Part shown: piece after piece, positions 13,058-42,719 of the stretch
Numbering within the stretch: the stretch's first letter is position 1
Layout of the letters: each line of letters starts with the position of its first letter
Source: Flavobacteriales bacterium
Lineage (GTDB): Bacteria > Bacteroidota > Bacteroidia > Flavobacteriales_F > PHOS-HE28
DNA: 64,000 nucleotides
NCBI GenBank assembly: GCA_016713865.1
Contig: JADJOG010000047.1
Span: 26,729-90,728 of the forward strand
Direction: 5' to 3'
Program-made: the position numbers and the translations under genes
Notes under the pieces: generated by a model
Databases searched by the model: none
What the model saw: the letters and a program-made list of their open reading frames with translations, nothing else
Told to the model about the DNA's origin: nothing

Positions 13058-15923
13058 ATGCCGGACCAAACGCCGAATGGCGACGATAAGCGCCTCTTCC
13101 TCCTCGACGCCTTCGCGCTCATCTACCGCGCCTACTTCAGCTTCATCCGTGCGCCGCGGATCAACAGCAAGGGCTTCAACACCAGCGCGGCCTTCGGCTT
13201 CACCACCACCCTGCTGGATCTGATCAAGCGCGAGAAGCCTACACACATCGCCGTGGTGTTCGATACTGCTGCGCCCACCGAGCGCCATGAGACCCTGCTC
13301 GACTACAAGGCCAACCGCGAGGAGATGCCCGACGACATCCGCAGCAACCTCGCCTACATCCGCCGCATCATCGAAGCGCTGCGCATCCCCATCCTCGAGA
13401 GCGATGGCTACGAGGCCGATGATGTGATCGGCACTTTAGCAAAGAAGGCCGAGCTCGAAGGCTACACCACTTACATGGTCACGCCCGACAAGGACTTCGG
13501 GCAATTGGTCACCGACAAGATCATCATGTACAAGCCGGGGCGCGGCGGCGATCCGCCCGAGAAGCTCGGCCCCAAGGAGATCTGCGATCGCTGGGGCGGG
13601 CTCACCAGCACTGAACAAGTGAAGGACATCCTCGGCCTCATGGGCGATGCGGTGGACAACATCCCTGGCATCCCCGGCATCGGCGAGAAGACCGCAATCA
13701 AGCTCGTGCAGCAATTCGGATCGTTGGAAGGCGTGATCGAAGGCGTGGAGCAGCTCAAGGGCAAGCAGAAGGAGAACGTGATCGCCTTCGCGGAGCAAGG
13801 CCGCATGAGCAAAATGCTCGCGACCATCAACATCAATGCACCGGTGGAATTGAACCATGATGCATTGCACCTCGATCCGCCCGACAAGGACAAGGTGATG
13901 GAGGTGTTCAGTGAATTGGAGTTCAAGACGCTGGTGAACCGGGTGCTGGGTGCAACAGTTCTGATGAATGGTGGCGGACCGCTGCGAGGGCCAAGTCGTG
14001 AACGCGCACAGCCAAAAAGTCATCAGCTGCGACACCAGGTCAAGTGGATCTCTTCGGCACCACGGTGGATGAGGACGGCAACGTGCAGATGAAGGAGCTG
14101 TCCACCATCGACAGCGTGCCGCACCGCTACTTCCTCGCCGACACCAGCGAGAAGATGTACATGCTGGCCGCGCAGCTGAAGAAGCAGCCGCGCTTCTGCT
14201 TCGATACAGAGACCACCAGCACCGACGAGCGCACTGCCGAACTCGTGGGCCTCGCATTCAGTTGGAAAGCGCACGAAGGCTACTATGTGCCCGTGCCCGC
14301 GGATCGTCCGGAGGCCCAGCGCATCGTCGGCATCTTTCAACCGATCCTGGAGAACGAGGCCATCGGCAAGGTGGCGCAGAACGCGAAGTATGATATCCGC
14401 GTGCTGGCGCGCTACGGCGTGGAGGTGAGAGGCCCCCTCTTCGACACCATGGTGGCGCATTACCTGCTGAAGCCCGACCAGAACAAGCACGGCATGGACG
14501 ACATGTCCGAGGCCTATCTCGGCTATCGGCCCGTGAGCATCGAAGCGCTCATTGGCGAGAAGGGAAGAGGCAAAGTGCAGAAGAGCATGCGCGATGTGGA
14601 TATGCAGTCCGTGAAGGAGTATGCCGCAGAGGATGCTGACATCACCTGGCAACTCTCCGAGAAGTTCTCGCCGCTGTTGGAGCAGGATGAAGTGACAACG
14701 CTCTTCAACGAAGTGGAGATGCCGCTGGTACACGTCCTCGCGGACATGGAGACCGAAGGCATCCGCATCGACATCCCGGCGCTCAAGAACTTCAGCGAGG
14801 AATTGGGCACCGAGCTGATCCGCTTGCAGGAAGCCATACATGCCAGCAGCGGCGTGCCCTTCAACATCGATTCGCCCAAACAGCTCGGCGATGTGCTCTT
14901 CGAGACGCTCAAGCTCGGAGGGGATTGCATCAAGAAGACTGCGAAGACCGGCCAATACCAGACCAGCGAGGACATTCTGCAAGGGCTGAGCAATGCGCAC
15001 CCCGTGATCCCGCTGATCCTCGACTATCGCAGCCTGCGCAAGCTCAAGGGCACCTATGTGGACACGCTTCCCGTAGCCGCCGACCCCGTAACGCATCGCG
15101 TCCACACCAGCTACCTGCAGACCGTTGCCGCCACCGGCCGCCTTGCGAGCAACGACCCCAACCTGCAGAACATCCCCATCCGCACGAGAAGGGCCGCGAG
15201 ATCCGCAAGGCCTTCGTGCCGCGCGATGAGAACTACCAATTGCTCAGCGCCGACTACTCGCAGATCGAATTGCGCATCATCGCGCACATGAGCGGCGACC
15301 ACAACATGCAGGAGGCCTTCCGCCATGGGCTCGACATCCACGCGGCCACGGCGGCCAAGGTCTTCAGCGTCGACATCAACGAGGTGACGCGATCAGCGCA
15401 GCCGCGCCAAGGCCGTGAACTTCGGCATCGCATACGGGCAGGGCGCCTTCGGATTGGCGCAGAACCTGGGCATCCCGCGCGCCGAGGCCAAGCAGATCAT
15501 CGACGACTACTTCGCCCATTCCCCGGCGTGCGCAACTACATGGACGAGATGATCGGCTATTGCCGCACCAACGGCTTCATCAAGACGCTGATGGGCCGAC
15601 GCCGTTACCTGCCCGACATCATCAGCGCCAACAACACCGTGCGCGCGCAGGCCGAGCGCGTGGCCATCAACGCGCCCATGCAAGGCTCTGCCGCCGACAT
15701 CATCAAGGTGGCCATGGTGAGCATCCACCGCGAGCTGAAGCAGCGCCGCATGAAGAGCAAGTTGCTGCTGCAGGTGCATGACGAACTCGTCTTCGACGCG
15801 CACAACGATGAAGCGGAGGATCTGAAAACGCTGGTCCGCGACCGCATGGAGGGCGCGATGCAATTAGCCGTGCCGCTCGTTGTTGACATGGCGCTGGGGA
15901 AAAACTGGTTGGAGGCGCACTGA
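13058..15923 (+). pseudogene. polA: DNA polymerase I, disrupted by four frameshifts (near 14000, 15190, 15395 and 15520). Probably intact in vivo.
   Basis: The 5'-3' exonuclease (13058..14092), 3'-5' exonuclease (14044..15291) and polymerase (14925..15923) domains sit in three ORFs. The conserved [30 protein letters not shown] segment is visible in a third frame inside 15390-15530. Confidence 0.9.
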
Positions 15924-16877: not shown

Positions 16878-17361
16878 ATGCTCCGCACCGTTATCGCTCC
16901 CGCACTGCTGGCCGCCGGTCTGATGCTCATCACCGGTACGGCCCAGGCCCAATGCAAATCGTTCGCGAAGAACAAATGCGTCCCCGGCCTGCTGCCATAT
17001 AAATTCAATGAGACCTTCAACGGCGCCACCTTGGCACCAGGCGATGAGGCTGAGGTGGCTCTCACCTTCTTCAGCGGTCAAGAGTATCGCGTGATGGTGT
17101 GCGTTCACCAGATCCTGGGCGAAGTGAATTGGAAACTGGTTGATCAGAACAACAAGACCGTTTTCGAGAGCTTGGCTGATGAGCCCAAGACCCCATTTCG
17201 ATTTCAAAGCCGCGAGCACGACGCAGTTGCACGCCGTGGTCTGGGTTCCGAGCAAGTCGAAGAGCGATATGGTGCACACCGGCTGCGTGGCCATCATGGT
17301 CGGCTTCAGGAATAATCGTATCAGCCGCCAACGCGGGCCTGTAAGCCGGCGTAGCGCATGA
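16878..17361 (+). pseudogene. small secreted hypothetical protein, frameshifted at a C4 run near 17195
   Basis: Signal peptide MLRTVIAPALLAAGLMLITGTAQA. The C-terminal continuation ...FDFKAASTTQLHAVVWVPSKSKSDMVHTGCVAIMVGFRNN is in the frame of ORF 17140..17361. Confidence 0.45.
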
Positions 17362-17389
17362 GGAGCCCGGGCCGTAACCCGGGCTCCTC
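17360..17389. terminator. bidirectional intrinsic terminator between convergent genes
   Basis: Perfect 12-bp inverted repeat GAGGAGCCCGGG-ccgtaa-CCCGGGCTCCTC followed by AGTTTCAG. Confidence 0.55.
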
Positions 17390-17393
17390 AGTT

Positions 17394-17837
17394 TCAGCGC
17401 AGTTCGATCCGGCTCTTGCGCTCGAGGTCCGTGAGCGGCTGGAAGCGGAGCAGATGGAAATCGGCTGTGCCGGCCAGCATGCGGATCTCGGATGATGCCC
17501 TGCCGAACTCGCGTCCATCCTGATCCTTGGCGATGGCCATAATCGCCCCTGTGAAATCCTGCTCGGCGATCAAGTACAGCATCAGTCGGTTGTCGCGTCC
17601 TGCGCTGTCTTCCTCGACAACGGTCTTTCCGAGCGAGAGCCCTCGTGCTTTCAGGTCATCAGAAAGCGCCACATCGATGCTCCAGCTCTTCTCGACGCCG
17701 GTGGTCACGCCCTCGATCACCTCTGTAGCAGCTGATCCGGCTATCTCGCCGCCTTTGTTCAGCGCGCTGCGCGTCCCATCGGCCACGCGGCCGCAACCGA
17801 TCAAGGCGGTCGCGGCAAGGAGCAGGACCGGCCTCAT
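17394..17837 (-). CDS. hypothetical lipoprotein
   Basis: LLAATALIGC lipobox. ATGA overlap with the upstream M43 gene (17834..17837). Confidence 0.5.
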   Translation of the reverse strand: MRPVLLLAATALIGCGRVADGTRSALNKGGEIAGSAATEVIEGVTTGVEKSWSIDVALSDDLKARGLSLGKTVVEEDSAGRDNRLMLYLIAEQDFTGAIMAIAKDQDGREFGRASSEIRMLAGTADFHLLRFQPLTDLERKSRIELR

Positions 17838-19888
17838 CGCACCACGAATCGTGCGGCGCGCATGCCGCTGTTCTGAGCAACGCGCACGAAATAGGCACCT
17901 GCTTGAAGCGCGCGCACAGGTAGGTCGAAACGATGCTCGCCTTGCGCGAGCCGGCCCTCGTGCAGCACGGCTGCCGTGCGACCCGTCATGTCGAGCACCT
18001 CGATGCTTGCTGGCCCGCTTAGCGCGATCAAGATGGTCGCTTGCGCTGCGCCTTCAACTGGGTTGGGAGCGATCGCGATGGTATTGGCATAGGGCATCAA
18101 TTCCTCGACTCCGACAGGTTGTCCGTTGAGGTTGATGTCGTCGAGGTAGATGTTGTTGCCGCCATCGCTCTCGAACTCGAACTTGAACCGGAAGTTGGCC
18201 ACGCTATTCGCAGGGACCGCGATGTTGGTCAATTCGGTGAAAGCCCATTGCGAAGCGCTGTTCGGGATGAAGCTCGTTGTGGTCACGGGCGCCGTGGGCA
18301 ACGTGGTGCTGCCGCGCATGATCTTGCGAAGCGACCAGCTGGTGCCGCAATTGGTGCTGGTGTACACGTACAGCACATCGTCGCTTGTTGTGGTACGACG
18401 TGCGTAGGCGTGCCTGAAGGAGAGCCTGATCTCCGTTGCATTGCTCAGGTCAACAGTACGGGAAACCAAGGCATCCGTTCGGCCATTCATCGTTGTCGTG
18501 TTCACGATGCGCGCGCTCTTGCTGCCGGTGAAGGCTGCCGCAGTTGTCACGGTCCACGTGTTATCGCTCTGTGGATTCTCTACCATCCAGTCCGGTGCCG
18601 AGAAGCCGCTTATGGCCTCGAAGCCTTCTTGGAGCGGGGCAGCGGTGCCCGGTACAGCAAGCACGGTGATGTAGTCGACCTGGGTGCTGGTCTGGTTGCT
18701 GGTGCCATCGCTGGCGGTAAGGCTCACAGCGTAGGTGCCTGGCGTGTTGTAGGCGATTGCAGGTGAGGCGGAAGTGGAGGTGGCGGGTGAGCCTCCGGTG
18801 AAACTCCAGATCCGCGAGGTCACAGAATTGTAGCTCTCATCGGTGAAGGTGACTGTGCTTCCCTGGCAGATAACGCGGCGATCTGAACTGAAGGCCGCAG
18901 CGCACAGGACATCGGGCTGGCCAACGCCTGTGGCGGTGAGGTTACTGCCCGCGATGAGTTGGTTGCGCTGTGCCGTGCTGGAGGTGAGTGCAGCGATCAT
19001 TCGGGTCTTCTGTCCGGCGGTGAACATCTTGGAGCAGTAGGAGTACTCCATGAAATTCTCCACGTTGTCCAACGAGTTGCACGTGGTGCCTGAAAGCGTG
19101 CAGGTGGTCCAGCCGATGGTATTGGGCGTATCGGCCACGCCATCGTCGGTGTTGCAGCTGCTGGCCACACCAGGGTTGTTGGTGCCGCCCCATGTATGCT
19201 CCAGATTGATCCAATGGCCCACTTCGTGGGTGAGGGCCCGGCTGCGCGATGCGCTTCCGGTTCCAATGGCCCCGACGTAGGTATGTTGCATCACGATGCC
19301 ATCGGCAGCGCTGAAAATGGCCACCGAGCCTGGCGTGAGTGTGTAGCCGGCAGCGCCATCGGCGTTCGCACATACCCATACATTCAGGTACTTATTGCGC
19401 GGCCACTGGATCAGGTTCTTCATGGTCTGCGTGCCATCGGTGGTCAAGGCGCTAACCGTGCGGGTGATGCCTTTGGTGCAGTTGCCGCTGGGGTCTTTCC
19501 GCGCCAGCTTGAACTCGATATCGACATTGGCCACGATGGGCAGGAACTCGGGCCGCACGTTCTGCCAATCGGGATTCTGCCGGTTGAAGTCCTCGTTGAG
19601 GATGCGCATGGCATCGATCACCTGAGCATCGCTGATGTTCTCCGCTCCGTAATTGTGAATGATGTGGAAGACCACCGGAATGGTATAGGTGCTGCGCGCG
19701 CCCTCAGTGAAGTTGGCAGTCCATTCCTCCAGCTCGGCATTGGCTTGCTGTATCGCATCGATCAACTCTGGCGCATTGCCATGGAGGGCTTCGAGGTGCG
19801 AAGGGTCGTTGTGCTTGCACGGAAGGTGCTGCGCGCTGGTTGCGAAGGCTAAGAGCGCGGCAAACGGTAGAAGAGCGACTCGGATCAT
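17834..19888 (-). CDS. M43 (ulilysin/pappalysin-like) zinc metallopeptidase with T9SS C-terminal sorting domain, paralog 1
   Basis: HEVGHWINLEHTWGG zinc site (HExxHxxxxxH). N-terminal TIPVVFHIIHN M43 region. C-terminal CTD ...YFVRVAQNSGMRAARFVVR. Length 684 aa. Confidence 0.8.
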   Translation of the reverse strand: MIRVALLPFAALLAFATSAQHLPCKHNDPSHLEALHGNAPELIDAIQQANAELEEWTANFTEGARSTYTIPVVFHIIHNYGAENISDAQVIDAMRILNEDFNRQNPDWQNVRPEFLPIVANVDIEFKLARKDPSGNCTKGITRTVSALTTDGTQTMKNLIQWPRNKYLNVWVCANADGAAGYTLTPGSVAIFSAADGIVMQHTYVGAIGTGSASRSRALTHEVGHWINLEHTWGGTNNPGVASSCNTDDGVADTPNTIGWTTCTLSGTTCNSLDNVENFMEYSYCSKMFTAGQKTRMIAALTSSTAQRNQLIAGSNLTATGVGQPDVLCAAAFSSDRRVICQGSTVTFTDESYNSVTSRIWSFTGGSPATSTSASPAIAYNTPGTYAVSLTASDGTSNQTSTQVDYITVLAVPGTAAPLQEGFEAISGFSAPDWMVENPQSDNTWTVTTAAAFTGSKSARIVNTTTMNGRTDALVSRTVDLSNATEIRLSFRHAYARRTTTSDDVLYVYTSTNCGTSWSLRKIMRGSTTLPTAPVTTTSFIPNSASQWAFTELTNIAVPANSVANFRFKFEFESDGGNNIYLDDINLNGQPVGVEELMPYANTIAIAPNPVEGAAQATILIALSGPASIEVLDMTGRTAAVLHEGRLAQGEHRFDLPVRALQAGAYFVRVAQNSGMRAARFVVR

Positions 19889-19945
19889 TTCAGATGGGCT
19901 GTTGGCCCGGCTAATCTATGACGCGTCGGAAGAGTCGCGAGGGAA

Positions 19946-22024
19946 TCACTCAAGCATCAGGCGCGCTGTCGTACTCGATGCATTGTGGTGGAAACGAACC
20001 AGGTACGCGCCGCGCTCCAAGTGGTTCAATGCAATCGGCAGCAGCACGTCACCCGCTGGCAAGGTGCCCAAGTCGCGGTTCATCACGATGCGGCCGGTGG
20101 CATCAAGCAAATCGATGCGGGCATTGCCGGGAGCGCTCAAGAAAGCCACGATGCGGGTTTCACTCTGGGCGGGGTTCGGCAATAAGCGCAGCCCGCTCAC
20201 CGCTGTGGCTTCGTTCTCGCCAACGCTAACCGGCATGGAGCTGATGTTGATGTCGTCGAGATAAAGGTTGTTGCCGCCATTGCTCTCGAACACGAACTTG
20301 AAGCGGAAGTTGCTGATGTGACTGGTCGCGCTGATGTTGCTGACTTCCGTGTAGCCCCATTGCGATGCATCGCCCGGGACGAAAGAGCCAGTGGTTAGCG
20401 GCCCTGTAGGAAGGGTGGTTGTGCCGCGCATGATCTTGCGCAGGCTCCAGTTGGTGCCGCAATCGTTGCTGATGTATAGGCTCAGCACATCGTCGCTGGA
20501 GGCCGTGCGTCGTGCATAAGCCCAACGGAAGGAGATGGTGATGTCGTCGGCAGCGGTCATGTCGTAGGTGCTCGAGAGTAGCTCGACGCTGATTCCATTC
20601 ATCGCAGTGGAGTTGAGCACGCGTGCGCTCCGGCTGCCGCTGAAGGCCGCTGTGCTCGCGATGCTGAATCCATTCGCTCCCGCTGGCGTGGTGGTGTACC
20701 ATTCAGGGCCGTTCAGCGCCGCAACGGTCTCGAAGCCCTCGACCACAGGAGGTAGTGTTCCCGGGTCGGCCATCACGGTGATCAGCGCGTTCTGTGTGGT
20801 ACTGAGCGTGCTAGCGCCATCGCTCACGGTAAGGCTGGCGCTGTAGATGCCAGGCTGGCTGTAGGTGATCAATGGATTCTCCTCGGTGCTGGTATCGGGC
20901 GTGCCGCCGGGGAAGCTCCAGGTGCGCGATGTCACGCTGTGGAAGCTCAAGTCCGTGAAGGAGATGGGCGACCCCGCGCACACGAGCTTCTTATCTACTG
21001 CGAATTGCGCTTGGCAGAGCGTGGGTTGCTCATTTGCCCCAGTGGCCGTGAGGTTGGCCGGGGTCCACAATTGATTGCGCTGTGATGTGGAGCTGTTCAG
21101 CGCGGCGATCATCCGTGTCTTCTGCCCCTCGGTGAACATCTTGCTGCAGTAGGAGTACTCCATGTAATTCTCCACGTTGTCCAGCGATCCGCAGCTTGTT
21201 CCAGCCAAGGTGCATACGCGCCAGCCTACCGTGTTGGGCGTGTCGCTCACGCTATCGTCGCCATTGCAATTCTCCGGAAGCTCCGGTTCGTTGCTATTGC
21301 CCCATGTGTGCGCCAGGTTGATCCAGTGCCCGACCTCGTGCGTGAGCGTGCGAGAGCGAGAGGGAGACGAAGTGCCGATTGCACCCGTGTAGGTGTGCAG
21401 CACGACGATGCCATCCCATGTTGGCTGGTTGTTCACCGAGCTAGGGCGGTAGGTGTAGCCGGCAGCACCATCGGCACTGGCGGCCACCCACACATTGAGG
21501 TATTTGTTGCGTGGCCACTGGATCAGGTTCTTCATGGTCTGCGTGCCGTCGTTCGTGAGCGTGCTCACCGTACGCGTGATGCCGTTGGTGCAGTTGCCCT
21601 GCGGGTCGCGTTGGGCCAGTTTGAATTCAATGCCCACATCGGCTACCAATGGCAGGAACTCGGATGGCACATTCGGCCAGTCGATATTCAGCTTATTGAA
21701 ATCGTTGTTGAGCACGCGTACCGCATCCTCGACCTGCGCGTTGCTGATGTTCTCCGGTCCATTGTTATGGATGATGTGGAAGACGACAGGGATGGTGTAC
21801 ACCACGCGCTCGGCTCCGGAGTTGTCCATTGCCCATTGGGCAGTGAAGGCCTCCAAGCGCGCGTCCTCCTCCATCACGGCTTGCAGGTAGGCTTCGGGTT
21901 CGCCGCTGAGCTGGGCGGCTTTCGCCAAGTCGTTCGCACCGCATGGATGCACATCGCTTTGGGCGATGAGCGTGAGAGGGAGGAGTGCACCAAGAAAGAG
22001 CGCGGAAAGGACGAGGAATCGCAT
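19946..22024 (-). CDS. M43 zinc metallopeptidase with T9SS C-terminal sorting domain, paralog 2
   Basis: HEVGHWINLAHTWGN. Signal peptide MRFLVLSALFLGALLPLTLIAQ. C-terminal ...YLVRFHHNASSTTARLMLE. High identity to paralog 1 (MEYSYCSKMFTxGQKTRMIAAL). Confidence 0.8.
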   Translation of the reverse strand: MRFLVLSALFLGALLPLTLIAQSDVHPCGANDLAKAAQLSGEPEAYLQAVMEEDARLEAFTAQWAMDNSGAERVVYTIPVVFHIIHNNGPENISNAQVEDAVRVLNNDFNKLNIDWPNVPSEFLPLVADVGIEFKLAQRDPQGNCTNGITRTVSTLTNDGTQTMKNLIQWPRNKYLNVWVAASADGAAGYTYRPSSVNNQPTWDGIVVLHTYTGAIGTSSPSRSRTLTHEVGHWINLAHTWGNSNEPELPENCNGDDSVSDTPNTVGWRVCTLAGTSCGSLDNVENYMEYSYCSKMFTEGQKTRMIAALNSSTSQRNQLWTPANLTATGANEQPTLCQAQFAVDKKLVCAGSPISFTDLSFHSVTSRTWSFPGGTPDTSTEENPLITYSQPGIYSASLTVSDGASTLSTTQNALITVMADPGTLPPVVEGFETVAALNGPEWYTTTPAGANGFSIASTAAFSGSRSARVLNSTAMNGISVELLSSTYDMTAADDITISFRWAYARRTASSDDVLSLYISNDCGTNWSLRKIMRGTTTLPTGPLTTGSFVPGDASQWGYTEVSNISATSHISNFRFKFVFESNGGNNLYLDDINISSMPVSVGENEATAVSGLRLLPNPAQSETRIVAFLSAPGNARIDLLDATGRIVMNRDLGTLPAGDVLLPIALNHLERGAYLVRFHHNASSTTARLMLE

Positions 22025-22209
22025 GGTGTGCTGAGGGGCTGGTTCAGCGCCAAAACTATTCGACTGCCCGAAAGACACGGGTCATGCTCAGGTAACAAGC
22101 CACGCAGGTCTTTGGCTCCTACGTGCGCTGGGAGAAGGAGTGGCACAAGCCCCCCGCCGACAAGCTGTTCACATGGCCCGATGGAGCATGGCTCGGCCCC
22201 GATGAGCGC

Positions 22210-24257
22210 CTAGTGCACCACGAACCGTGCGCTAGCCTCTTGGGTTGCCATCCGCAGGCGCAGAACGTAGGCTCCATTGGCCAAGCCTGCCAGGGGCAGG
22301 CGCCAGCCAGAAGAGGTGAGATCCGCTGCGCGCACCAGCCCCATCGAGATTTCTCGACCAGCGGGATCGATGATCGCCCACTGCGCGCCCGCCCACTCCT
22401 GTGGCAGATCGACCCACGCCTCTGTTCCTGCAGGATTGGGGAATATGTTAATGGCATTGGGCTCCCGCGCCGCTTCATCGATGCCTACCGCCAGCGGTGA
22501 AATGTTGATGTCGTCGAGGTAGAGGTTGTTGCCGCCCATGCTCTCGAACACGAAACGAACCCGGAAGCGCGAGGTGAGCAACGATGCGCCGATGTTGGTG
22601 ATCACGGCTTCTTGCCATTGCTCAGGGCCACTGGGCACGAAGCTTCCGCCTTGCATCGGTCCGGTTACCAGGGTGGTGATCGCGCGGAGCACTTTTCGCA
22701 GCACCCAGGTCTGGCCGCAATCGCCGCTCACATAGACATACAGGGCATCATCATTCGATGGGCTACGGCGGGCGTATGCGTATCGAAAGGAGAGCGCGAC
22801 GGGTCCCGAGCCATTCAGGTTCAAGGTGGAGCTGATCAACTCATCAAAACGGCCTGATGCCTCCGTGGTGTTTATCAGGCGCACCGACCGTGAACCGGTA
22901 AAGGCCGCGGCGCTAGTTGTTTCGAAGCTGTTATCGCCATCTGGATTCTCGGCGCGCCACCAGTCATCAAGATTCTCCGCGCCCTCGAATCCCTCGCTCC
23001 ATGGCAAGGGTGCTCCCGGGTTGGAAAGCACGCGGATGTGGTCGGTTCGTATTTCCGTTATCAACGCGCTTCCGTCTCCAACGCTCAGGCTCACGGGGTA
23101 GCTGCCGGTGCTGTTGTAGGTAATGGTCGGGCTCGTGTTGAATGAGGCTGAAGGTGTGCCGCCCTCGAACGACCAGAAGCGCTGGGTTACTCCGAAGAAG
23201 CTCTCGTCGGTGAACTGCACGGTTGATCCCTCGCACACCTCGCGCCTGTCGCTGCGGAATTGCGCGCGGCAGAGCTGCTCTGGCTCGAGCACGCCGGTGA
23301 GCACGAGATTGGCCGGCTGCCACAAGTTGTTGCGCTGCGCGATGGGCGATGTGAGCGCGGCGACCATGCGGTCGCCCTGACCTTGCGTGAACATCTTGCA
23401 GCAGTACGAATACTCCATATAGTTCTGGACATTGTCCAGCGCGCTGCCGCAACTGGCGCCGCTAAGCGCGCAAGAGGTCCAGCCGCGGGTGAGCGGGGTG
23501 TCGGCTACTTCATCATCCATGAAGCAGTTGTCGTCCGTCCCTGGCTCATTGCTATCGCCCCAGCAATGCTTGAGGTTGAGCCAATGTCCCACTTCATGTG
23601 TGAGCACACGGCTACGGTAGGAGCGCCTGTACCGATGCTGCCCGTGTAGGTGTGCAGGATCACGATACCATCCGCTTGTGGCCAGCCATCGAGCCACCCG
23701 GGTAATAGGTGTAGCCCGCGGCGCCATTGGCACTGGCGGCAACCCATACGTTCATGTACCGGTCTCGCGGCCATTGGATCAGCTGCGTCATCTCCGAAAT
23801 CACCATCGTTGGTCCGTGAGCTCTTCGTGCGGGTGATCCCGTTGGTGCAATTGCCTTGCGGGTCGCGTTTGGCCAAGCGGAATTCCATGCCTGCATCGCC
23901 CACGATGTCGATGAACTCGGGCCTTACGGTGGCCCAGTCGGGGTTCTGCCGGTTGAAGTCGTCGTTCAGGATCCGGATGGCGTCGTATAGCTGCGCGTCG
24001 CTGATGTTCTCCGGCCCATCGTTGTGGACGATGTGGAAGACCACCGGGATGATGTAGCCGCTACCACCACGCTCGAAGCCGTCGAGGCGAGCTTTCAATG
24101 CGGTGCGCGCAGCTTCGGCGCGCGCTAGGGCATCCGGGTTCTCGGCTAGCTGCCGTGCCAGTTGCTCAGGATTATTGGCAAGGCAGCGGAAGCCTTCGTC
24201 TTGCGCGCTGGCATGAACGAAGGGCAGAAGCAGCAGAAGAAGCGTGATCAGGCGCAT
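22210..24257 (-). pseudogene. M43 zinc metallopeptidase with T9SS C-terminal sorting domain, paralog 3, disrupted by at least three frameshifts between about 23600 and 23830
   Basis: The N-terminal part (MRLITLLLLLLPFVHASAQ...IPVVFHIVHNDG) is in ORF 23505..24257. The middle segment QWPRDRYMNVWVAASANGAAGYTYYPG is in ORF 23660..23896. The catalytic HEVGHWLNLKHCWGD site and the C-terminal sorting domain are in ORF 22210..23742. Confidence 0.75.
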
Positions 24258-31017: not shown

Positions 31018-32781
31018 ATGCCCGCCCACCTCGCCAAGCGCTGGCGCCTGAAGCCCGCACCGGAACCCGACGCCGTGGCCGAACTCACCTACGAGCGCTG
31101 CCCGGAATCTGCGGCCACCATCCTGGCCCAACGCGGAATCCGCGACAAGCGCATGGCCGCGCACTTCTTCCGCCCGGCGCTCGACGACCTGCACGACCCT
31201 TTCCTGATGGCCGGCATGCAAGAGGCGGTTGAACGCATCGAGCGCGCCTTGGGCGACAACGAGCGCATGATGGTGTATGGCGACTACGACGTGGATGGCA
31301 CCACCGCCGTATCGCTCGTGTATGGTTCCCTCGCGCGCTTCACCGGCAACCTGCTGTTCTACATCCCGGATCGATATGCCGAAGGCTACGGCATCTCGTT
31401 CCAAGGCATCGATAAGGCCAAGGAAGAAGGCATCACGCTCATCATCGCGCTGGATTGCGGCATCAAGTCCATCGACAAGGTGGCCTATGCCAAGGAGCGC
31501 GGCATCGACTTCATCATTTGCGACCACCACTTGCCGGGCGAGCAACTGCCCGATGCCGTGGCCGTGCTCGACCCCAAGCGCCCCGATTGCCCCTATCCGT
31601 TCAAGGAGCTCAGTGGCTGCGGCATCGGCTTCAAGCTGATGCAAGGCTTCGCGCAGCGCAACAACATCGCCTTCGATGATCTGCTATCGTCGCTGGATCT
31701 GGTGGCCATCAGCACGGCATGCGACATCGTGCCGGTGACCGGTGAGAACCGCATCCTCAGCCATTTCGGCTTGAAGGAGCTGAACGATACCCCACGGCCA
31801 GGTGTGCGCGCCATCCTCGGCATGGCCAACGTGAAGAAGCGCCTCGGCGTGGGCGACCTCGTGTTCAGCATCGGTCCGCGCATCAATGCCGCCGGGCGCA
31901 TCGAGCATGGGCGCAAAGCGGTGGAACTGCTGCTGGCGCACGAGGATCAGCAAGCAGCAGCGGTAGCCACCTTGATCGACGGCAACAACAGCCATCGGCA
32001 GGAGCTCGACCGCAACATGACGGAGGAAGCACTCGCGCACATCGCCGATGATGCTTGGCAGCAAGGCTCTTGGAGCACGGTGGTGTTCAAGCCCGAATGG
32101 CACAAGGGCGTGGTGGGCATCGTGGCCTCGCGCCTGGTAGAGCGGCATTACAAGCCCACCGTGGTGCTCACCGCCAGCAATGGCAAGGCCGTGGGCAGCG
32201 CGCGCAGCGTGAAGGGCTTCGATGTGCATGAGGCCATCAGCGCGTGCAGCGATCTGCTGGATCAGTACGGCGGCCACATGTATGCGGCGGGGCTCACCAT
32301 GCCAGTGGAGAATGTGGAAGCCTTCCGCCAGCGATTCGATGAAGCTGTTCGCGCCACCATCACCGCTGAGCAGCGCGTGCCGGAGGAAGAGGTGGACATC
32401 GAGCTCCGCCTTGATCGGATCGACGAGGGCCTGTTGCGCGTGATCAAGCACATGGCGCCGTATGGTCCAGGAAACATGAGGCCCGTCTTCCTCGCACGCG
32501 GTGTTGTTGATACGGGCAGCGCGCGCCTCGTGGGCGAGCACCATCTGAAGATGCGGCTCGCTCACCCCGACGACCTGCGCCGATCCTTCGATGCCATTGC
32601 CTTTAAGCAAGCCGCTTGGCTCGATCGCGTGAAGAGCGGCCAGCCCTTCAGCGTGCTTTACGCGATCGAAGAGCATGAATGGCAGGGCCGCGTGAGCACG
32701 CAGCTCAATATCAAGGACATCAAATCGGAAGTGGATGGCGTGCTCTTCGGGGAAGAACGCATGGCCGCTGTGAACCAATGA
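31018..32781 (+). CDS. recJ: single-stranded-DNA-specific exonuclease RecJ
   Basis: DHH motifs (VYGDYDVDGTTA, IICDHH) and a DHHA1 domain. Length 587 aa. Confidence 0.9.
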   Translation: MPAHLAKRWRLKPAPEPDAVAELTYERCPESAATILAQRGIRDKRMAAHFFRPALDDLHDPFLMAGMQEAVERIERALGDNERMMVYGDYDVDGTTAVSLVYGSLARFTGNLLFYIPDRYAEGYGISFQGIDKAKEEGITLIIALDCGIKSIDKVAYAKERGIDFIICDHHLPGEQLPDAVAVLDPKRPDCPYPFKELSGCGIGFKLMQGFAQRNNIAFDDLLSSLDLVAISTACDIVPVTGENRILSHFGLKELNDTPRPGVRAILGMANVKKRLGVGDLVFSIGPRINAAGRIEHGRKAVELLLAHEDQQAAAVATLIDGNNSHRQELDRNMTEEALAHIADDAWQQGSWSTVVFKPEWHKGVVGIVASRLVERHYKPTVVLTASNGKAVGSARSVKGFDVHEAISACSDLLDQYGGHMYAAGLTMPVENVEAFRQRFDEAVRATITAEQRVPEEEVDIELRLDRIDEGLLRVIKHMAPYGPGNMRPVFLARGVVDTGSARLVGEHHLKMRLAHPDDLRRSFDAIAFKQAAWLDRVKSGQPFSVLYAIEEHEWQGRVSTQLNIKDIKSEVDGVLFGEERMAAVNQ

Positions 32782-34349
32782 AACCTGATCGCATGAAGAA
32801 GCATCTCATCGCTTTTGCGGCTTTGCTGCCCTTTGCCGCCTCAGCCCAGTCGCCAACTTGGAGCGACGATGTGGCGTGCATCGTGTACTCGCACTGCACC
32901 GCATGCCACCACGATGGAGGTCCTGCGCACTTCAGCCTGACCACGTATGTGGATGCCTATTGGTGGCGCAATGAGATGCGTGCCGCGACGCAGGCCAAGC
33001 TGATGCCACCCTGGCCAGCAGATGAAGCCTATCGCCCGCTGGCGCACGAGCGGCTCCTTTCGCAGGATGAGATCGACATCATTGCCGCATGGGTGGACGG
33101 TGGCGCCCCCGAGGGCAATGCGCAGAATGCCCCAGCGGCACCGGAGTACTCGAGCGAGGCCGTGATCACGAATCCCGATATCACCGCCATCATGGATGAT
33201 TACGTCATCCCTTCTTCAACCTCCGACAACTACCGGTGCTTCGTGCTGCCCATCAACAACCCCGCGAACTCCTGGATCACGGGCCTTGAAGTGGTGCCCG
33301 GCAACCGCGAGATGGTGCATCACGTGCTCGTGTTCCAGGACGCCACCGGACAGGCGCAGCAATTGGATGCGCAGGATCCGGCGCCCGGCTATTCCGGTTT
33401 CGGTGGCATCGGCGTACCCAGCGCCAAGCTGATTGGGATGTGGGTGCCGGGGTCGGAGCCGTACTTCACCCCGCAAGGAATGGGAATCAAGTTGCTCGCG
33501 AACGCGGACATCGTGATTCAGGTGCATTACCCGGCCACGAGTTCGGTGCAACTCGATAGCACTCGGGTGAACATCCGTTTGGGCACAGCGCCCTTCATGC
33601 GCGAGTTGGCCATCGATGCCATCCTTCAGCATAGCAATATGACCAACGGCCCGCTCGTGATCCCGGCCAATCAGGTGCGCACCTTCAATCAGCAGTACAC
33701 AGTTCCGATCAATGCCACCATCACCGCCATCGGCCCGCATGGCCATCTGATCTGCCGAAGCTTGAAGAGCTGGGCGGTGAAGCCCAGCGGCGAAGTGGTC
33801 CCGTTGATCGACATCCCGCAATGGGATTTCCGTTGGCAGGACCTGTACTCCTTCCGCAATCCCATCTTCTTGCCCAGCGGAACCGTGATCCACAGCGAAG
33901 GCGTTTACGACAATACCAGCGCGAACCCCAACAACCCGAGCAGTCCGCCGCAGCTGGTCACTGCCGGCGAGGCCACCACCGATGAGATGTTCCTCTTCTT
34001 CTTCGCATGGACGCCCGGCCTCGCCAGCGATGAAGCGATCGTGATCGATGACGGTGCGCACCCTGAGCATCACCTCGGCTGCGAGACCAGCTTCTCGGTC
34101 GGAGTGATTGATGTGGTCGCAGCGCCGTTGCGGATCGTACCGAATCCGGCTGCTGAGCGCATCACCATTTCCGGCGCGACTGGATCGATTATCCGCATGC
34201 TCGACGCAACAGGTCGCGTGGTGCACACGGCATCACTCACGATGCAAGAAGAGGTCATCGATGTGGCCGCATTGCGACGCGGGCCCTACATCGTGGAGCT
34301 GCTGCATCGCGATGGAACGAATCAGCGCGCCACTGTGGTGCTTGAATGA
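32778..34349 (+). CDS. secreted cytochrome c domain fused to a copper type II monooxygenase-like (PHM/DBH fold) domain, with T9SS C-terminal sorting domain
   Basis: Signal peptide (MKPDRMKKHLIAFAALLPFAASAQ; alternative start 32793). CTACH heme motif plus MPPWPAD. PHM-like ligand pattern: HHVLVF, QVHYP, PHGHLI, DEMFLFF. C-terminal ...GPYIVELLHRDGTNQRATVVLE. Confidence 0.55.
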   Translation: MKPDRMKKHLIAFAALLPFAASAQSPTWSDDVACIVYSHCTACHHDGGPAHFSLTTYVDAYWWRNEMRAATQAKLMPPWPADEAYRPLAHERLLSQDEIDIIAAWVDGGAPEGNAQNAPAAPEYSSEAVITNPDITAIMDDYVIPSSTSDNYRCFVLPINNPANSWITGLEVVPGNREMVHHVLVFQDATGQAQQLDAQDPAPGYSGFGGIGVPSAKLIGMWVPGSEPYFTPQGMGIKLLANADIVIQVHYPATSSVQLDSTRVNIRLGTAPFMRELAIDAILQHSNMTNGPLVIPANQVRTFNQQYTVPINATITAIGPHGHLICRSLKSWAVKPSGEVVPLIDIPQWDFRWQDLYSFRNPIFLPSGTVIHSEGVYDNTSANPNNPSSPPQLVTAGEATTDEMFLFFFAWTPGLASDEAIVIDDGAHPEHHLGCETSFSVGVIDVVAAPLRIVPNPAAERITISGATGSIIRMLDATGRVVHTASLTMQEEVIDVAALRRGPYIVELLHRDGTNQRATVVLE

Positions 34350-35746: not shown

Positions 35747-38700
35747 TCACGGCAATTGCTGCGTCCTTGTATTCGTCGGAACGCTTCCGCCAACATTCAC
35801 GAGAATTGGATCGCGGTCGTTGTTCTCCCCGGTGTAGCGGAAGATGCCATCCATGTTCACGTCGGCTTGGTGATAGCCCGGCGCGCTCAAAGCCGTTGGC
35901 ACGTTGCCGCCAATGCTCAACAGGATGGGATCGCGGTCATTGTCCTCACCGGTGTAGCGCAGGATGCCATCGCGAGAAACATCACCGCTCCAGAGCAGCG
36001 CCTTGCCATCGCGCAGCCGACGGGCATCGGTCCCGTGCATGCTGAGCGCAGGGTTCGAGAAGTCGATGCTCGCTGGGGTCGTGCTCAATGCTTGCGGGGC
36101 CGCAGTCATTGCTCCCAGATGATTCCGGTGCTTCACGGCGATTCGGTAATTACCATTTCCGGCGCGGAAGCTTACAGGCGAATCTCCGTCGATGTCAACC
36201 ACATCGCCATCGCGCTGCAGCAGTGCTGAGCGAGTGGCAAGCACGGTTGACGGCGAGGTGGCATCGCGCAATTCGAGCATCACCCAATCGACAATGGCAT
36301 TATTGCCCGATTGGACGAGCACGGCAGGCGCCACGGTCTCGCCGCCGCCGAAGTACTGCTGGAAGCCAAGTCCGGTGTAGGGCTCGGTCGAAGGGATGTG
36401 GGAGCCGCTGCGCAAGGCATCGCTCATGATGTCCGTGACCTCATCATAAGGACCATCGAGCAAGAGCTTCAGGGCCACGCGCACGCCATTGCGCTCGATC
36501 ACCACATCGTCGAGGTGCAGCCAGTTGCCATAGCCATTGATATTCACGAAGCGCACGATCACTTGCTGGCCGTCGAAAGCGCTTAGGTCATCATCGTGCT
36601 GCTGCCATTGACTGCAGGCGGTTGGTGTCCAGGCTGAGGTGACATATCCTGTGGTTTGCAGGGCCGCACCCGTGGCCTGGAATGTGGTGGTCCAAGTGAG
36701 CCCGCAATCGCCGCTGACCTCCACGCGCATGCCATCGGGGTAAGCAGAGCTATAGCCGCTGTAGGCGTGCTTGTATTTGAGGCGCGTGCCAGCCGATCCA
36801 CTCAGGTCTATTCGCGGGGTAACCAAGCGATCTTCTTGGCCCGGGGCGCTTACGGAGTAGTTATCGATGCCCCAGACGCGCGCGCCTACGCAAGACTCTT
36901 GGGCGGAAACAGCACGGGTCACCCATGTGGTGCCGTTGTCGGGATTCTCGAGTAACCAGCCCGCAGGGATCGGCGGGGTGCTTTCAACATTCGTGGTATA
37001 GGTCGATGCAGCACTGGATGGAGTAGTGAGGGTGATGCTCGATGCAGCTGCGTCATTCGGGACGTACTGATCCCCCGCAAGATTCGTCCGTGCCGTCACG
37101 GTATGTGGCCCATCGCCTGTGATGGTGAGTGTTTGCGCGAAGGTGTAATCGGCAGAGGCGCCTGCAGCGAGTGTCCCGGCGTAGGCGGCCAGCACCTCGG
37201 AGCCTCCATCGAGCTGATAACGCAGCTCGAAATTCGATTGTGGCTGCTGACCGAAGTTTCCGCACGCGAACAACGACTGGGAGATTGCTTGCCGCGCAGT
37301 TGAAGAGGTTTCCGCTGGGCGATAGCACTTGAGCGATGCCCACGTTGTTGGCCACGGGCATGTCGAAGGCCTCGCTCTGATCCGAGCGGCTGGTGGAGAG
37401 CCCTTGACTGGCGCTTGCTCCCAAGCCGCGGCGCGCGAAGGCTGCCCAGATCGCGGTCTGGTTAGCACCGCCGTAAAGTGCTTGATCGGCGGCGAGTATC
37501 GCGTCACGACCATCAACGAATCCTGGATTGCAGGGTGTGAGCTTCAGGCCTTCAATCACCAGTCGCATGGCGATGTTGTTGCCGCCGGTGCCATTGTAAA
37601 TGTCCGGGTCCCAGCCGTAGATGCCGATCAGCTCCCAGGTCATCTCCCAGAGCATGGTACACCACACGAAACCGATGCCATGCGGCTGGCTCAATCCACT
37701 ATTGGTGCTTGCATAGGTGTAGTTGTTAACGCCGAAGCTGGTGCTGTAACGAGCCGGGCGGATGCCCGCACCCGTGGTAGGCTGGCCGAGCACATAGGTG
37801 CCTACGCCACGACCGGTTGAACCGGTATCACCTGCGCGTATCGTCATAACGATGCCGAAATAGTCGCTCCAGCCCTCACCCATTTGCTCAGCGTTGCCCA
37901 AGCAGCTCGTGTTCGCCGGACCGCCAACGAGGCGGTTGCTGATGCCGTGGCCGTACTCATGCGCGATGATCCCATTATCCAGGTCACTGTCGCGGTTGGG
38001 CGTGGTATAGGTCCACCGATACATCTGCATCCGTGGATTGCTGCCATCGGGTGGAGTGCCGAAATTGGCGTTGTTGGTGCCGCTGCCATCCTGCGCATCT
38101 GCATCAACGGGGTCGCTGCCGACGCCGCCGCGGCCGTAGTTGTTCTCTTGGAAGTTGCCGGCCGGGTCATTGAAGCCATACTGGTACCACACGTCGTGCA
38201 TCAAGTTGTTCCAGTAGAAGAGGTTGGTGGTGGCGGCGGGCAGGTAGGTCGAAGGCGCCTGTGCGAAATCAATCGGGAAGTCGAAGTCGAGCGTTGCGCC
38301 GCCATCTGGTCGCGTGCCACCGGTGTTGTTGGCATCGGCATCTTCTTGCGCGAAGCAGTTGTTGCCGCGCGTATCCGAGAACTCTGCACCTGCTACACCA
38401 TTGGTGTCGTGCCAGCCATAGGGCGAAGCGGTGCCGCCATCGAGCCAAGGGGCGTTGCTCAGTGTGCGCGGGCCGTGGCTCGGACTCTCCAAAGGCCAAT
38501 CGAACACGTTGTATTCGTTGGGTGCGGCGGGAGCAAGTTCCTCTTCAGGCGAATGATCGGTGCAGCCATGATGTGTGTGGTCATCCCAGTTGCATTGCGC
38601 TACCCAGTCGTTGCGGTCCAGCTCTTCACCGGTGATGGCATCGACGCGCACGTTCCACCAATGCGAGCCATCGGGCGTGTAATGGTTCACGTTCCAGGCC

Positions 38701-39212
38701 AAGCGCAAGGCATCGCCTTTGGGCTGGAACACGAGCTGGGCTATTATGGGCTCGTTTCCGAAAGCGCTGCCATCGAAGATCGCTTTGCGCCCTTCATCCT
38801 CTGCGCTCATCAGCTGCGGTGCGCTCTTATCGGGCAGGTTGCGTGCAATCACCAAGGCCACGGCGGCTTCGGCTGTAAGCACGGGTTCGGTAGCGTTCGC
38901 GCGTTTCCCGATGCCGGTGAAAGCGCCCACGTTCAACTTGAGCAATTCGCCATCTGGACGGAGATGCATAGCGATGTCGCCATTCCACACCTCGATGCCT
39001 TGCCAGCGCTGACGCAGGTACAAGTGACGGATCCCGCTTCCTTCCGAACGGTAATCGTCCTCGATCAGTAGATCCTTCAGGTCGCTTGCATGAAAGCCGT
39101 CAAGCAACAGAAGCTGCTCGGTTTTCGCTGGCAAGGGAGTTGAGCTCTGGGCAGAAACGCAGTTCGCTGAAAATACGAGGGCAATGAGGGCGAGGGTCGG
39201 CTTGTGTATCAT
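35747..39212 (-). pseudogene. M36 (fungalysin-like) zinc metalloprotease, copy 1: FTP propeptide, M36 catalytic domain, shared middle domain and a dockerin-like C-terminal module. One frameshift near 37300.
   Basis: Signal peptide MIHKPTLALIALVFSANCVSAQ. HEYGHGISNRL (HEXXH) in ORF 37053..39212. The continuation in ORF 35747..37516 includes D-x-N-x-D-G loops (DVNMDGIFRYTGENNDRDPIL). There is no classic T9SS CTD. Confidence 0.75.
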
Positions 39213-42200: not shown

Positions 42201-42556
42201 GACAAAGCGGAGGTCGCGCTGATCGCAGGTGTTGTCGCGTTCACGCGTTCGGGCAACCGATTGAACGCTCCGATGTGCGCTTCAACGACGCTGCCATCCG
42301 CACGTTGATGTATCGCGATGTCGCCATTCCACACCTCGATGCCTTGCCAACGCTGCCGGATGTAGTTGTGAGTGAGGCCAAGTGTTTCCGAATCGTAACG
42401 ATCCTTAATGATCACATCCTGCAGGTCGGCGTCAATCAGATCGGCTTTCGCCAACCGGGATTGAATTGAGCCGAGCAATGAGGCAGCATCGTCCTGCGCA
42501 TGCCCGAAGGAAACGCTGGTGACCAGAACGAGTGCGACTAAGAATCTCAGGATCAT
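39283..42556 (-). pseudogene. M36 (fungalysin-like) zinc metalloprotease, copy 2, with T9SS C-terminal sorting domain. One frameshift near 41650.
   Basis: Signal peptide MILRFLVALVLVTSVSFGHAQ (ORF 41591..42613). HEYGHGVSNRL in ORF 39283..41853. C-terminal ...VYFLRIGPDGAFGVERLVVSE. Confidence 0.75.
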
Positions 42557-42719
42557 GGCATTTGCGGGATCGAAAATAGGGGCACGCCGCACATTCAACA
42601 ATAGCCCCTGCAATCGGTTCGATTGGGTCCTTGGCCCCTCTGCGAGGCTACATTTGGACCGCCGTTAAGAACGCCGTGCTTCGCAAACGCCTCTCAACGA
42701 GGACCAAATAGACAGATTC

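Follow-up and report, generated by a model that had tools for sequence, protein, structure and literature searches.

A probably ancient array of three lower-pappalysin M43 protease genes in a Flavobacteriales bacterium

Three genes for M43 metalloproteases stand head to tail in a 64-kb stretch of DNA (the window) that would belong to an uncultured activated-sludge Flavobacteriales bacterium, and the gene that comes first in the direction of transcription is broken into several reading frames. Does such an arrangement reflect recent duplication, with one copy already lost, or is it an old array in which each member has been kept? The first-pass annotation, made from the sequence alone, favored an expanding or diversifying protease family. 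The analysis reported here makes a different answer highly likely: the locus holds an array of three secreted lower-pappalysin M43 endopeptidases of the mirolysin/ulilysin/cytophagalysin family that is ancient and has been inherited stably, and its third copy is no pseudogene.

Layout, domain content and family of the array

The annotation had placed three consecutive M43 genes on the minus strand and considered copies 1 and 2 (c1 and c2) intact; both points were confirmed, as were spacers of 57 bp (c2-c1) and 185 bp (c3-c2). For c2 there is an alternative start, an upstream GTG at 22078. Two M36 genes nearby bring the number of zinc-protease genes between 17.8 and 42.6 kb to five: the measured span, 24.8 kb, agrees with the earlier figure of five within 25 kb. 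The hairpin beyond the lipoprotein gene, which has a 14-bp stem and folds at -48.2 kcal/mol over its 78 nt, is likely to be the end of the transcription unit.

Table 1. Features of the M43 array and its surroundings (window positions).
Feature	Position	Strand	Description
GC-rich perfect hairpin	17316-17393	n/a	RNA fold; between convergent genes
Lipoprotein gene	17394-17837	minus	147 aa; lipobox LIGC; ATG overlaps c1 stop codon
M43 copy 1 (c1)	17834-19888	minus	684 aa, intact
M43 copy 2 (c2)	19946-22024	minus	692 aa from ATG, intact
c3-c2 spacer	22025-22209	minus	185 bp; -7-like element and G-run
M43 copy 3 (c3)	22210-24257	minus	2048 nt; first gene in transcription direction
c3 indel 1	23794	minus	extra G/C: GATTTCGGAGATG in window vs GATTTC-GAGATG in relatives; frame 1 to 2
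c3 indel 2	23698	minus	base missing in CCCGGG run; frame 2 to 1
c3 indel 3	23620	minus	C missing: GCTCC-TAC in window vs GCTCCCTAC in L075; frame 1 to 3
Tandem M36 genes	35747-39212 and 39283-42613		both split by frame

The c3-c2 spacer contains TAGTTTTG, a Bacteroidota-type -7-like element that starts at position 22058, 26 nt 5' of the c2 ATG. On the minus strand of the segment from 17.3 to 27 kb this is the sole occurrence of TAnnTTTG, and orthologous loci carry the same element, or near-variants of it, 26-48 nt 5' of the c2 ATG; the likeness is one at the level of the motif. The G-run in the spacer (22150) differs in length from that of L075, a related genome described below.

[quoted passage not shown] Pfam Peptidase_M43 was matched with E-values of 7e-20 (c1), 2e-19 (c2) and 8e-17 (c3), and PKD was matched in all three. 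The motifs that had been picked out by eye are present in every copy, as IPVVFHIIHN (c1 and c2) or IPVVFHIVHN (c3) and as the zinc sites HEVGHWINLEH (c1), HEVGHWINLAH (c2) and HEVGHWLNLKH (c3). The C-terminal Por sorting domains of the annotation correspond to Pfam Por_Secre_tail and to NCBIfam TIGR04183, which scores above its cut-off of 23 in c1 (35.9 bits) and c2 (25.3 bits) and just below it in c3 (19.4 bits, E 7.6e-4). Matches to NCBIfam choice_anchor_J (24.1 bits in c2, 29.1 bits in c3) both fall under the curated cut-off of 30; paralogue alignment and fold search suggest the same domain in c1. Genes for the T9SS machinery are absent within the window. The M43 array is already annotated: identical NCBI proteins carry the locus tag prefix IPJ85_, and the entry identical to c1 is named 'PKD domain-containing protein'.

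In c1 the key residues are Cys24 (pro-segment), H221, E222, H225, N228 and H231, Met280, Tyr282, and Cys245, Cys263, Cys270 and Cys285. C24, H221, E222, H225, H231, M280, Y282, C245, C263, C270 and C285 are kept in 55 of 55 homologues, and these invariant residues are the features given for lower pappalysins (PMC6949598, PMC11674741).

A phmmer search of PDB returned mirolysin (E 4e-49) and ulilysin (E ~1e-38) over residues 65-312. The AF2 model of c1 (mean pLDDT 80.6, with weak stretches at the pro-segment, pLDDT ~55-74, and at residues 240-290, pLDDT 38-58) gave mirolysin (TM 0.78-0.79, 36% identity) and ulilysin (TM 0.76) as top Foldseek matches, while its later domains matched MAM-Ig and Kgp cleaved-adhesin domains. 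The original assignment – M43, ulilysin-like, with T9SS sorting domains – is thus borne out, mirolysin and ulilysin being the best solved relatives by both sequence and fold.

Mirolysin (Tannerella forsythia; MEROPS M43; PDB 6R7W/6R7U/6R7V), the best match to the catalytic domain, has like the window proteins a C-terminal domain for T9SS secretion (PMC6949598). Neither keeps the canonical Gly of HEXXHXXGXXH: mirolysin has Asp231 in its place and the window proteins an invariant Asn. The latter differ in an extra invariant Cys137 (Thr in mirolysin), in the PKD and choice-of-anchor-J domains between protease and sorting domains, and in lacking mirolysin's KLIKK-type C-terminal domain; moreover, mirolysin comes from a pathogen, where its single gene neighbors that of a potempin, whereas the window holds a triplet from an environmental bacterium. 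Ulilysin (Methanosarcina acetivorans; PDB 2CKI), the structural prototype of lower pappalysins, is 35% identical to the catalytic domain and shares with it the zinc motif, the Met-turn and the arrangement of disulfides (PMC11674741), but it is archaeal and lacks T9SS sorting, PKD and choice-of-anchor-J domains alike. Cytophagalysin CPL1 (Cytophaga sp. L43-1) is, like the window proteins, a multidomain Bacteroidota M43 protease; its pro-segment is predicted to work as a cysteine switch through C24, and its C-terminal domain is similar to T9SS CTDs (PMC11674741). With eight Ig-like domains it reaches 137 kDa, whereas the window proteins, at ~73 kDa, have a single PKD and a single choice-of-anchor-J domain. 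The fpp2-fpp1 locus of Flavobacterium psychrophilum, which a reference title in PMC4496569 gives as tandem extracellular protease genes, resembles the array by literature description: multidomain Bacteroidota proteases in tandem.

Frameshifts in copy 3

Copy 3 had been described as split into at least three frames. With c2 as query, tblastn indeed divides it into three frame segments, and three 1-nt indels within ~190 nt lead the frame from 1 to 2, back to 1 and on to 3, the third lying shortly before the HEVGHW zinc site. The indels are seen in comparison with the orthologue L001 and also with L075 and L076, two independent short-read scaffold/NODE assemblies in which c3 is an intact 682-aa ORF (98.8% DNA identity). 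Corrected for the indels, the window's c3 likewise encodes a 682-aa protein with all six elements, from signal peptide to C-terminal sorting domain.

If c3 is a true pseudogene, recently inactivated in this strain, then the array is on its way from three functional genes to two. Three frameshifts in so short a segment are consistent with this, as is the fact that L075 and L076, which share ~94% identity with the window across 19 kb, are close relatives but other genomes. However, the 2048 nt of c3 contain no stop codons or lesions other than the three indels, the catalytic residues are all kept, and dN/dS (0.19-0.29 against orthologues) is 0.19 against L075, the same as for c1. Nor is damage of this kind confined to c3: polA is broken by a 1-nt indel inside its conserved NLQNIPIRT motif, single-base indels are found in the 145-aa gene, the FG-GAP gene and the YicC-like gene – at least three genes besides polA within 20 kb – and each M36 gene is divided among overlapping ORFs of different frames; all are unbroken in L075 and L076. 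Between c2 and its counterpart in L075 (97.6% DNA identity) there are zero indels. The c3 indels lie in or beside short G/C runs, and the other inspected indels are single G/C bases in G/C-rich sequence. The closest relatives of the window are 'tig...' MAGs from a CANU/Nanopore activated-sludge project (pipeline in PMC8012365), and the source of the window itself would seem to be a Nanopore-based activated-sludge MAG. Taken together, these comparisons render inactivation very unlikely. The split c3 is almost certainly, as judged from aligned sequences, a sequencing-error artefact and not a decaying gene, its frameshifts presumably being one-base errors in the consensus of a Nanopore-derived assembly; the decay implied by the annotation is at odds with the intact gene in near-identical independent assemblies.

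Divergence and conservation of the triplet

Tandem head-to-tail genes with short spacers, and a range of 1 to 4 copies among related species, are what might be pointed to in support of a recently expanding, recombination-prone family or of a copy-number artefact of assembly. Against both stands the divergence of the copies. Identity among whole proteins is 51-55% and among the DNA sequences 57-62%; the best 100-nt segment between copies reaches 83% identity and exact common runs extend to 32 nt at most, so that the long near-identical stretches proposed as recombination substrate are absent. An identity of 60-70% over long stretches, as first estimated, holds for the catalytic domain only (74% for c1-c2, 65-66% for c3 against the others) and not for the proteins or genes as a whole; accessory and sorting domains are 26-55% identical.

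Related loci (n = 74) were fetched for comparison. The order c3-c2-c1 recurs, each gene having a one-to-one best match, in 11 other species-level Flavobacteriales genomes (L001-L008, L018, L022 and L064), and a neighbor-joining tree resolves three deep orthology clades, one per copy, the deepest split setting off the c3 type; each copy has orthologues of its own across at least 11 species. Among 51 well-flanked loci copy number is one in 24, two in 15, three in 11 and four in one. Values of dN/dS are 0.17-0.31 across all three copies (about 0.2), purifying selection thus being of similar strength in the three lineages. Collapse or expansion of the triplet during assembly was excluded, the copies being too divergent and the identical triplet recurring in independent assemblies.

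Recent expansion, or an artefact of copy number, is accordingly extremely improbable, and with DNA identity of ~60%, deep clades, shared order and dN/dS of ~0.2 the notion of an expanding or diversifying family finds no support. From the same-order, one-to-one orthologues in 11 other genomes we infer that the triplication is ancient and was retained: on comparative grounds, the triplet is an old and stable array.

The lipoprotein gene and the proposed role of the array

The array and the lipoprotein gene next to c1 could also be seen as a module of proteases and a cognate partner (inhibitor, anchor or maturation factor), comparable to the potempin-KLIKK pairs of T. forsythia. Potempins are outer-membrane lipoproteins of 98-132 residues, co-transcribed with their protease, and one of them, PotD, is an inhibitor of mirolysin, an M43 enzyme (PMC9890683). 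As in those pairs, a small lipoprotein gene – with a lipobox, and of a size comparable to potempins – lies beside a T9SS protease gene, here translationally coupled through an ATGA overlap with c1. A homologue directly follows the last M43 gene in 26 of the 59 loci with downstream sequence, and the family (~128 members) is confined to this lineage. Yet the gene order is the reverse of that in potempin loci, the lipoprotein gene being downstream of the protease, and the linkage is not universal: 33 of the 59 loci have no homologue in the downstream sequence covered. In more distant relatives two genes on the opposite strand lie between the lipoprotein gene and the M43 gene, and the former retains its 145-aa, 297-aa and polA gene neighbors; the linkage may therefore be plain synteny. 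The AF2 model of the lipoprotein is a beta-sandwich whose PDB matches are weak (Wzt carbohydrate-binding domains; Cj0090, E 1.8e-3) and include no potempin among the 50 best listed, and the sequence matches no PDB chain, Pfam family or NCBIfam family. A partner module is thus unlikely, and the parallel with potempins serves as a lead only.

An ancient array of three secreted endopeptidases is, then, the reading we prefer. Each protein would enter the Sec pathway by its signal peptide, and the invariant Cys of the ~40-residue pro-segment may work on the catalytic zinc as a cysteine switch, by analogy with promirolysin. Behind the metzincin catalytic domain (HEVGHWxNLxH, Met-turn, Tyr and two disulfides) come PKD and then the MAM/'cleaved-adhesin'-like choice-of-anchor-J beta-sandwich, and the type A C-terminal domain would direct export via the T9SS. 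Outside the cell the enzymes would most likely digest protein for nutrition, and the retention and divergence of c1, c2 and c3 suggest that they have probably become subfunctionalised, differing in substrate or binding preference.

Organization and family of the M43 genes

The array comprises three tandem minus-strand genes, c1, c2 and c3 (copies 1 to 3, c3 being first in the direction of transcription). The first-pass annotation had described three M43 metalloprotease genes separated by 57 and 185 bp, the third split across frames, and sharing the motifs IPVVFHI(I/V)HN and HEVGHW(I/L)NL(E/A/K)H. The ORF list and sequence comparison confirm this observation as a whole, including the family assignment. 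Peptidase_M43 and PKD domains were detected in all three copies with Pfam and NCBIfam profiles: scores for PF05572 (curated cut-off 23 bits) are 71.9 bits for c1, 70.5 for c2 and 62.0 for the C-terminal ORF of c3. Matches to the choice-of-anchor-J domain fall slightly under the NCBIfam cut-off in c2 and c3; in c1 the domain is backed by paralogue alignment and fold search.

The PDB sequences closest to residues 65-312 of c1 (phmmer, all PDB) are mirolysin from Tannerella forsythia (E 4e-49) and ulilysin (E ~1e-38). An AlphaFold2 model of c1, built on 55 homologues (mean pLDDT 80.6), gave the same two proteins in Foldseek: mirolysin at E 4.7e-20 (TM 0.78-0.79, 36% identity) and ulilysin at E 3.6e-17 (TM 0.76). 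The domains following the protease match MAM-Ig modules, gingipain "cleaved adhesin" domains and carbohydrate-binding-module-type sandwiches.

Lower pappalysins are characterized by a cysteine-switch Cys, three zinc ligands, a catalytic Glu, a Met-turn, a Tyr switch and two disulfides (PMC6949598; PMC11674741), and residues invariant among the 55 homologues appear to correspond to each of these. The zinc motifs of the three copies read HEVGHWINLEH, HEVGHWINLAH and HEVGHWLNLKH, with H221, E222, H225, N228 and H231 invariant, as are M280 and Y282 (NFMEYSY), which align with NYMDYTY of mirolysin. C245, C263, C270 and C285, likewise invariant, align with the four cysteines of mirolysin and are predicted to form the two disulfides of the C-terminal subdomain, a region in which the model's pLDDT is low. 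C24, also invariant, lies 3-5 residues past the predicted end of the signal peptide, in a pro-segment modelled at low confidence, and corresponds in position to C23 of mirolysin (PMC6949598) and C24 of cytophagalysin, CPL1 (PMC11674741); among the three copies only c2 has a CG dipeptide at this cysteine.

Two positions are specific to this M43 subfamily. Position 228 is Asn, whereas mirolysin has Asp (PMC6949598) and the canonical HEXXHXXGXXH motif has Gly; Cys137, a further invariant cysteine, is replaced by Thr in mirolysin. In c1, Asn228 is encoded at ~19205-19207 and Cys137 (of GNCT), which has no known partner, at ~19478-19480.

Near the array are two tandem genes predicted to encode T9SS-dependent M36 (fungalysin) metalloproteases, and thus the earlier count of five zinc proteases within 25 kb is correct. 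This neighborhood also encodes a probably secreted copper type II monooxygenase-like protein and a probably secreted protein of 1307 aa with Sortilin/VPS10 repeats and PKD.

Features of the window discussed in the text (length differences are relative to L075 and L076 for c3, to L075 or other orthologues for the 145-aa, FG-GAP/ASPIC and YicC-like genes, and to relatives for polA)
Feature	Position	Strand	Remarks
FG-GAP/ASPIC T9SS protein gene	near 10911	-	single-base indel
polA (DNA polymerase I)	13058-15923	+	at least three ORFs, broken by small indels
polA indel sites	near 14001-14029; 15185; 15391; 15516	+	15185, C absent inside conserved NLQNIPIRT motif; 15391, 2 nt
145-aa hypothetical gene	16878-17315	+	single-base indels at 17191 and 17308
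Hairpin GAGGAGCCCGGG...CCCGGGCTCCTC	17316-17393		GC-rich, perfect, 14 bp; after the 147-aa gene, between convergent genes
147-aa lipoprotein gene	17394-17837	-	lipobox LIGC; ATG overlaps c1 stop by 4 nt (ATGA)
c1 (M43 copy 1)	17834-19888	-	684 aa
c2 (M43 copy 2)	19946-22024	-	692 aa counted from ATG
TAnnTTTG element TAGTTTTG	22051-22058	-	26 nt upstream of c2 ATG
c2 alternative start	22078	-	in-frame GTG
c3 (M43 copy 3)	22210-24257	-	frames 1, 2, 1 and 3
c3 length difference	23794	-	extra G/C
c3 length difference	23698	-	base absent in CCCGG run
c3 length difference	23620	-	C absent
YicC-like gene	near 27797	+	single-base indel
Copper type II monooxygenase-like gene	32679-34349	+	T9SS sorting domain
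M36 gene 1	35747-39212	-	two overlapping ORFs in different frames; choice-of-anchor-J
M36 gene 2	39283-42613	-	two overlapping ORFs in different frames; choice-of-anchor-J
Sortilin/VPS10-repeat + PKD gene	43216-47139	-	1307 aa

Age and conservation of the triplet

The first-pass annotation saw in the array an expanding or diversifying family whose long, near-identical DNA stretches would be substrates for recombination. Pairwise comparison of the DNA found no such stretches: overall identity is 62% for c1-c2, 59% for c1-c3 and 57% for c2-c3, no 100-nt segment exceeds 83%, and exact matches extend to 32 nt at most. The argument from recombination therefore falls, and with it the worry that the assembly had collapsed. 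Whole proteins are 55% (c1-c2), 52% (c1-c3) and 51% (c2-c3) identical, with similarity unevenly spread: the catalytic domains are 65-74% identical, the PKD and choice-of-anchor-J domains 46-55%, and the signal peptide plus pro-segment, as well as the sorting domain, 26-38%. An identity of 60-70% over long stretches, as originally described, thus holds at the protein level for the catalytic domain and nowhere else.

A c2-based scan restricted to one genome per species returned 74 loci, all from metagenome-assembled genomes (MAGs) of uncultured Flavobacteriales/Bacteroidota, many of them from wastewater. A tblastn search with the three proteins showed that the order c3, c2, c1 is kept in 11 other species (loci L001-L008, L018, L022 and L064), where the best match to each gene is the window copy from the equivalent position, at 57-82% identity – greater than the 51-55% found between the window's own copies. 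In a neighbor-joining tree of 125 genes the three positions form three orthology clades, of which the c3 type branches deepest, while genes from single-copy loci fall mostly in a separate clade. Among the 51 loci with sufficient flanking sequence, 24 carry one copy, 15 two, 11 three and one four. Ratios of dN/dS against orthologues are 0.19-0.29 for c3, 0.18-0.22 for c2 and 0.24-0.31 for c1, so that purifying selection acts with similar strength on all three lineages.

Recent duplication was rejected on the low DNA identity, the short exact runs and the orthologue clades, and collapse or expansion of the assembly on recurrence of the triplet in independent assemblies and in the other species. 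The triplet is a retained ancient triplication and not an ongoing expansion. Its genes are of an ordinary, already-annotated kind: a database search with c1 gives ~5,500 proteins at E < 1e-20, already listed under names such as "M43 family zinc metalloprotease", "T9SS type A sorting domain-containing protein" and "PKD domain-containing protein".

Interrupted reading frames

Aligned with its orthologue at L001, c3 has single-base indels at exactly three points and is otherwise well conserved. L075 (ENA ERZ28614577, scaffold_660, 48 kb) and L076 (ERZ15185901, NODE_763, 32 kb) are independent assemblies of very close relatives, found by look-up with the 147-aa protein encoded downstream of c1. 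The window is identical to them at 99.2% of the DNA of c1, 97.6% of c2 and 98.8% of c3, and in both c3 is an unbroken ORF of 682 aa, the three indels (see table) being its only length differences.

Lesions of this type occur elsewhere in the window. Small indels break polA, which is intact (952 aa) at L075, L076 and a further relative, L077; single-base indels break the 145-aa, FG-GAP/ASPIC and YicC-like genes, and the remaining shared genes are likewise intact in L075 and L076. For these positions the list from DNA alignment was preferred to a tblastn count of frame changes against the L075 proteins, which is too low because short shifted segments are bridged. In both M36 genes the family profile continues across the break; in M36 gene 2, positions 2-303 of NF038113 lie in one ORF and positions 557-786, together with the C-terminal sorting domain (CTD), in the next. 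These two splits are probably errors of the same type as those in c3.

The exact proteins of the window are present in NCBI under the locus tag IPJ85_, and the nearest relatives are "tig..." MAGs, a series generated from Nanopore reads by CANU assembly, Racon/medaka polishing and one further Racon round with Illumina data (PMC8012365). From locus tags and names we infer that the window belongs to the same project; homopolymer indels are the known residual error in such data (PMC9262707). The copy-3 orthologue at L007, also a "tig" MAG (JADJDP010000002, 7775-9811), is likewise recovered in several tblastn pieces, which is consistent with the same type of assembly error.

The four-part reading of c3 admits two accounts. 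One is decay, by which copy 3 would be a true pseudogene specific to this strain; this is very improbable given an intact c3 in near-identical relatives, its low dN/dS, and similar indels in other genes of the same window. The other is consensus error, and on comparison with these relatives the frameshifts are almost certainly of this kind, copy 3 being intact in the organism.

Expression, export and the adjoining lipoprotein

A scan for sigma-70 promoters found no site, the sigma-70 model not being applicable to Bacteroidota. From 17.3 to 27 kb the minus strand has a single TAnnTTTG, TAGTTTTG, which starts at 22058 in the c3-c2 spacer; this element or a close variant lies 26-48 nt ahead of the c2 start codon in L001, L003, L004, L022 and L075. 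It suggests that c2, and c1 with it, probably has its own promoter inside the array, in which case the three genes would not form one operon. The start of c3 lies 48 bp past a gene for a Cys/Met-metabolism PLP enzyme. At the other end the hairpin between the convergent 147-aa and 145-aa genes is likely a bidirectional terminator, though it lacks a T-run.

Hydrophobic N-termini ending in A-x-A/AQ (MIRVALLPFAALLAFATSAQ, MRFLVLSALFLGALLPLTLIAQ and MRLITLLLLLLPFVHASAQ for c1, c2 and c3) were read off the sequence as predicted Sec signal peptides. The T9SS type A sorting domain TIGR04183 (cut-off 23 bits) scores 35.9 bits in c1 and 25.3 in c2; c3 falls below the cut-off (19.4 bits, E 7.6e-4), and its whole domain aligns with those of its paralogues. 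Other sorting-domain proteins are encoded at 32679-34349, at 39283-41853 and by the FG-GAP gene; no T9SS machinery genes lie within the 64-kb window. Judging from the family, the proteases would be exported by Sec, the C-terminal domain would be recognized by the T9SS and then removed, and the pro-segment cysteine would hold the enzyme latent as long as the pro-segment is in place. Zinc-dependent endoproteolysis would then be extracellular, and the PKD and choice-of-anchor-J domains might aid binding to substrate or surface. Protein scavenging would be the obvious role in a sludge heterotroph.

The 147-aa lipoprotein is one of a family confined to this lineage, in which only ~128 proteins can be detected and none is named; its lipobox Cys15 is invariant across 53 homologues. 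It has no Pfam or NCBIfam match, and nothing among PDB sequences at E < 0.68. A homologue directly follows the last M43 gene at 26 of the 59 loci with downstream sequence; most M43 loci are without the gene. At L081 and L083, found by reverse look-up from distant homologues, two opposite-strand genes separate it from the M43 gene while other neighbors are retained. Its model is a confident beta-sandwich (residues 55-146), for which the best 50 Foldseek matches in PDB, none better than E 1.8e-3, are beta-sandwiches such as Cj0090 and Wzt carbohydrate-binding domains, with no potempin among them; the most conserved part, ALNKGGELAGSAATEVIEGVTTGVE, just after the lipobox Cys, is a low-confidence linker in the model.

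Potempins, small inhibitor lipoproteins of T. forsythia, are encoded immediately upstream of, and co-transcribed with, their KLIKK proteases (PMC9890683). The 147-aa protein resembles them in its lipoprotein signal and lipobox Cys, but its gene lies downstream of c1. This reversed order, absence of the gene from most M43 loci and its detachment in distant relatives weaken an otherwise attractive analogy, and a potempin-like inhibitor was rejected on the lack of sequence matches, the generic folds and the breakable linkage to M43. That the protein, whose gene overlaps c1 in a way expected to couple their translation, is a new, lineage-restricted M43 partner of a fold unrelated to potempins, acting as a surface-anchored inhibitor, immunity factor or docking protein, seems unlikely; the linker might be its interacting segment.

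The evolutionary reading first drawn from the array is not supported, and neither is a pseudogene reading of copy 3. The most useful outcome is attribution of the window's split genes to sequencing artefacts: the apparent pseudogenes, among them polA and three out of five protease genes, are long-read MAG consensus errors, almost certainly for c3 and probably for the M36 genes, and should thus not be taken as gene decay. The biological weight is small – a further example of multidomain T9SS-exported M43 proteases, already named in public annotation. That three diverged copies have been retained over a long time suggests that they may differ in specificity or binding partners, and an array kept for so long in one activated-sludge Flavobacteriales lineage hints at a division of labor in extracellular protein degradation.
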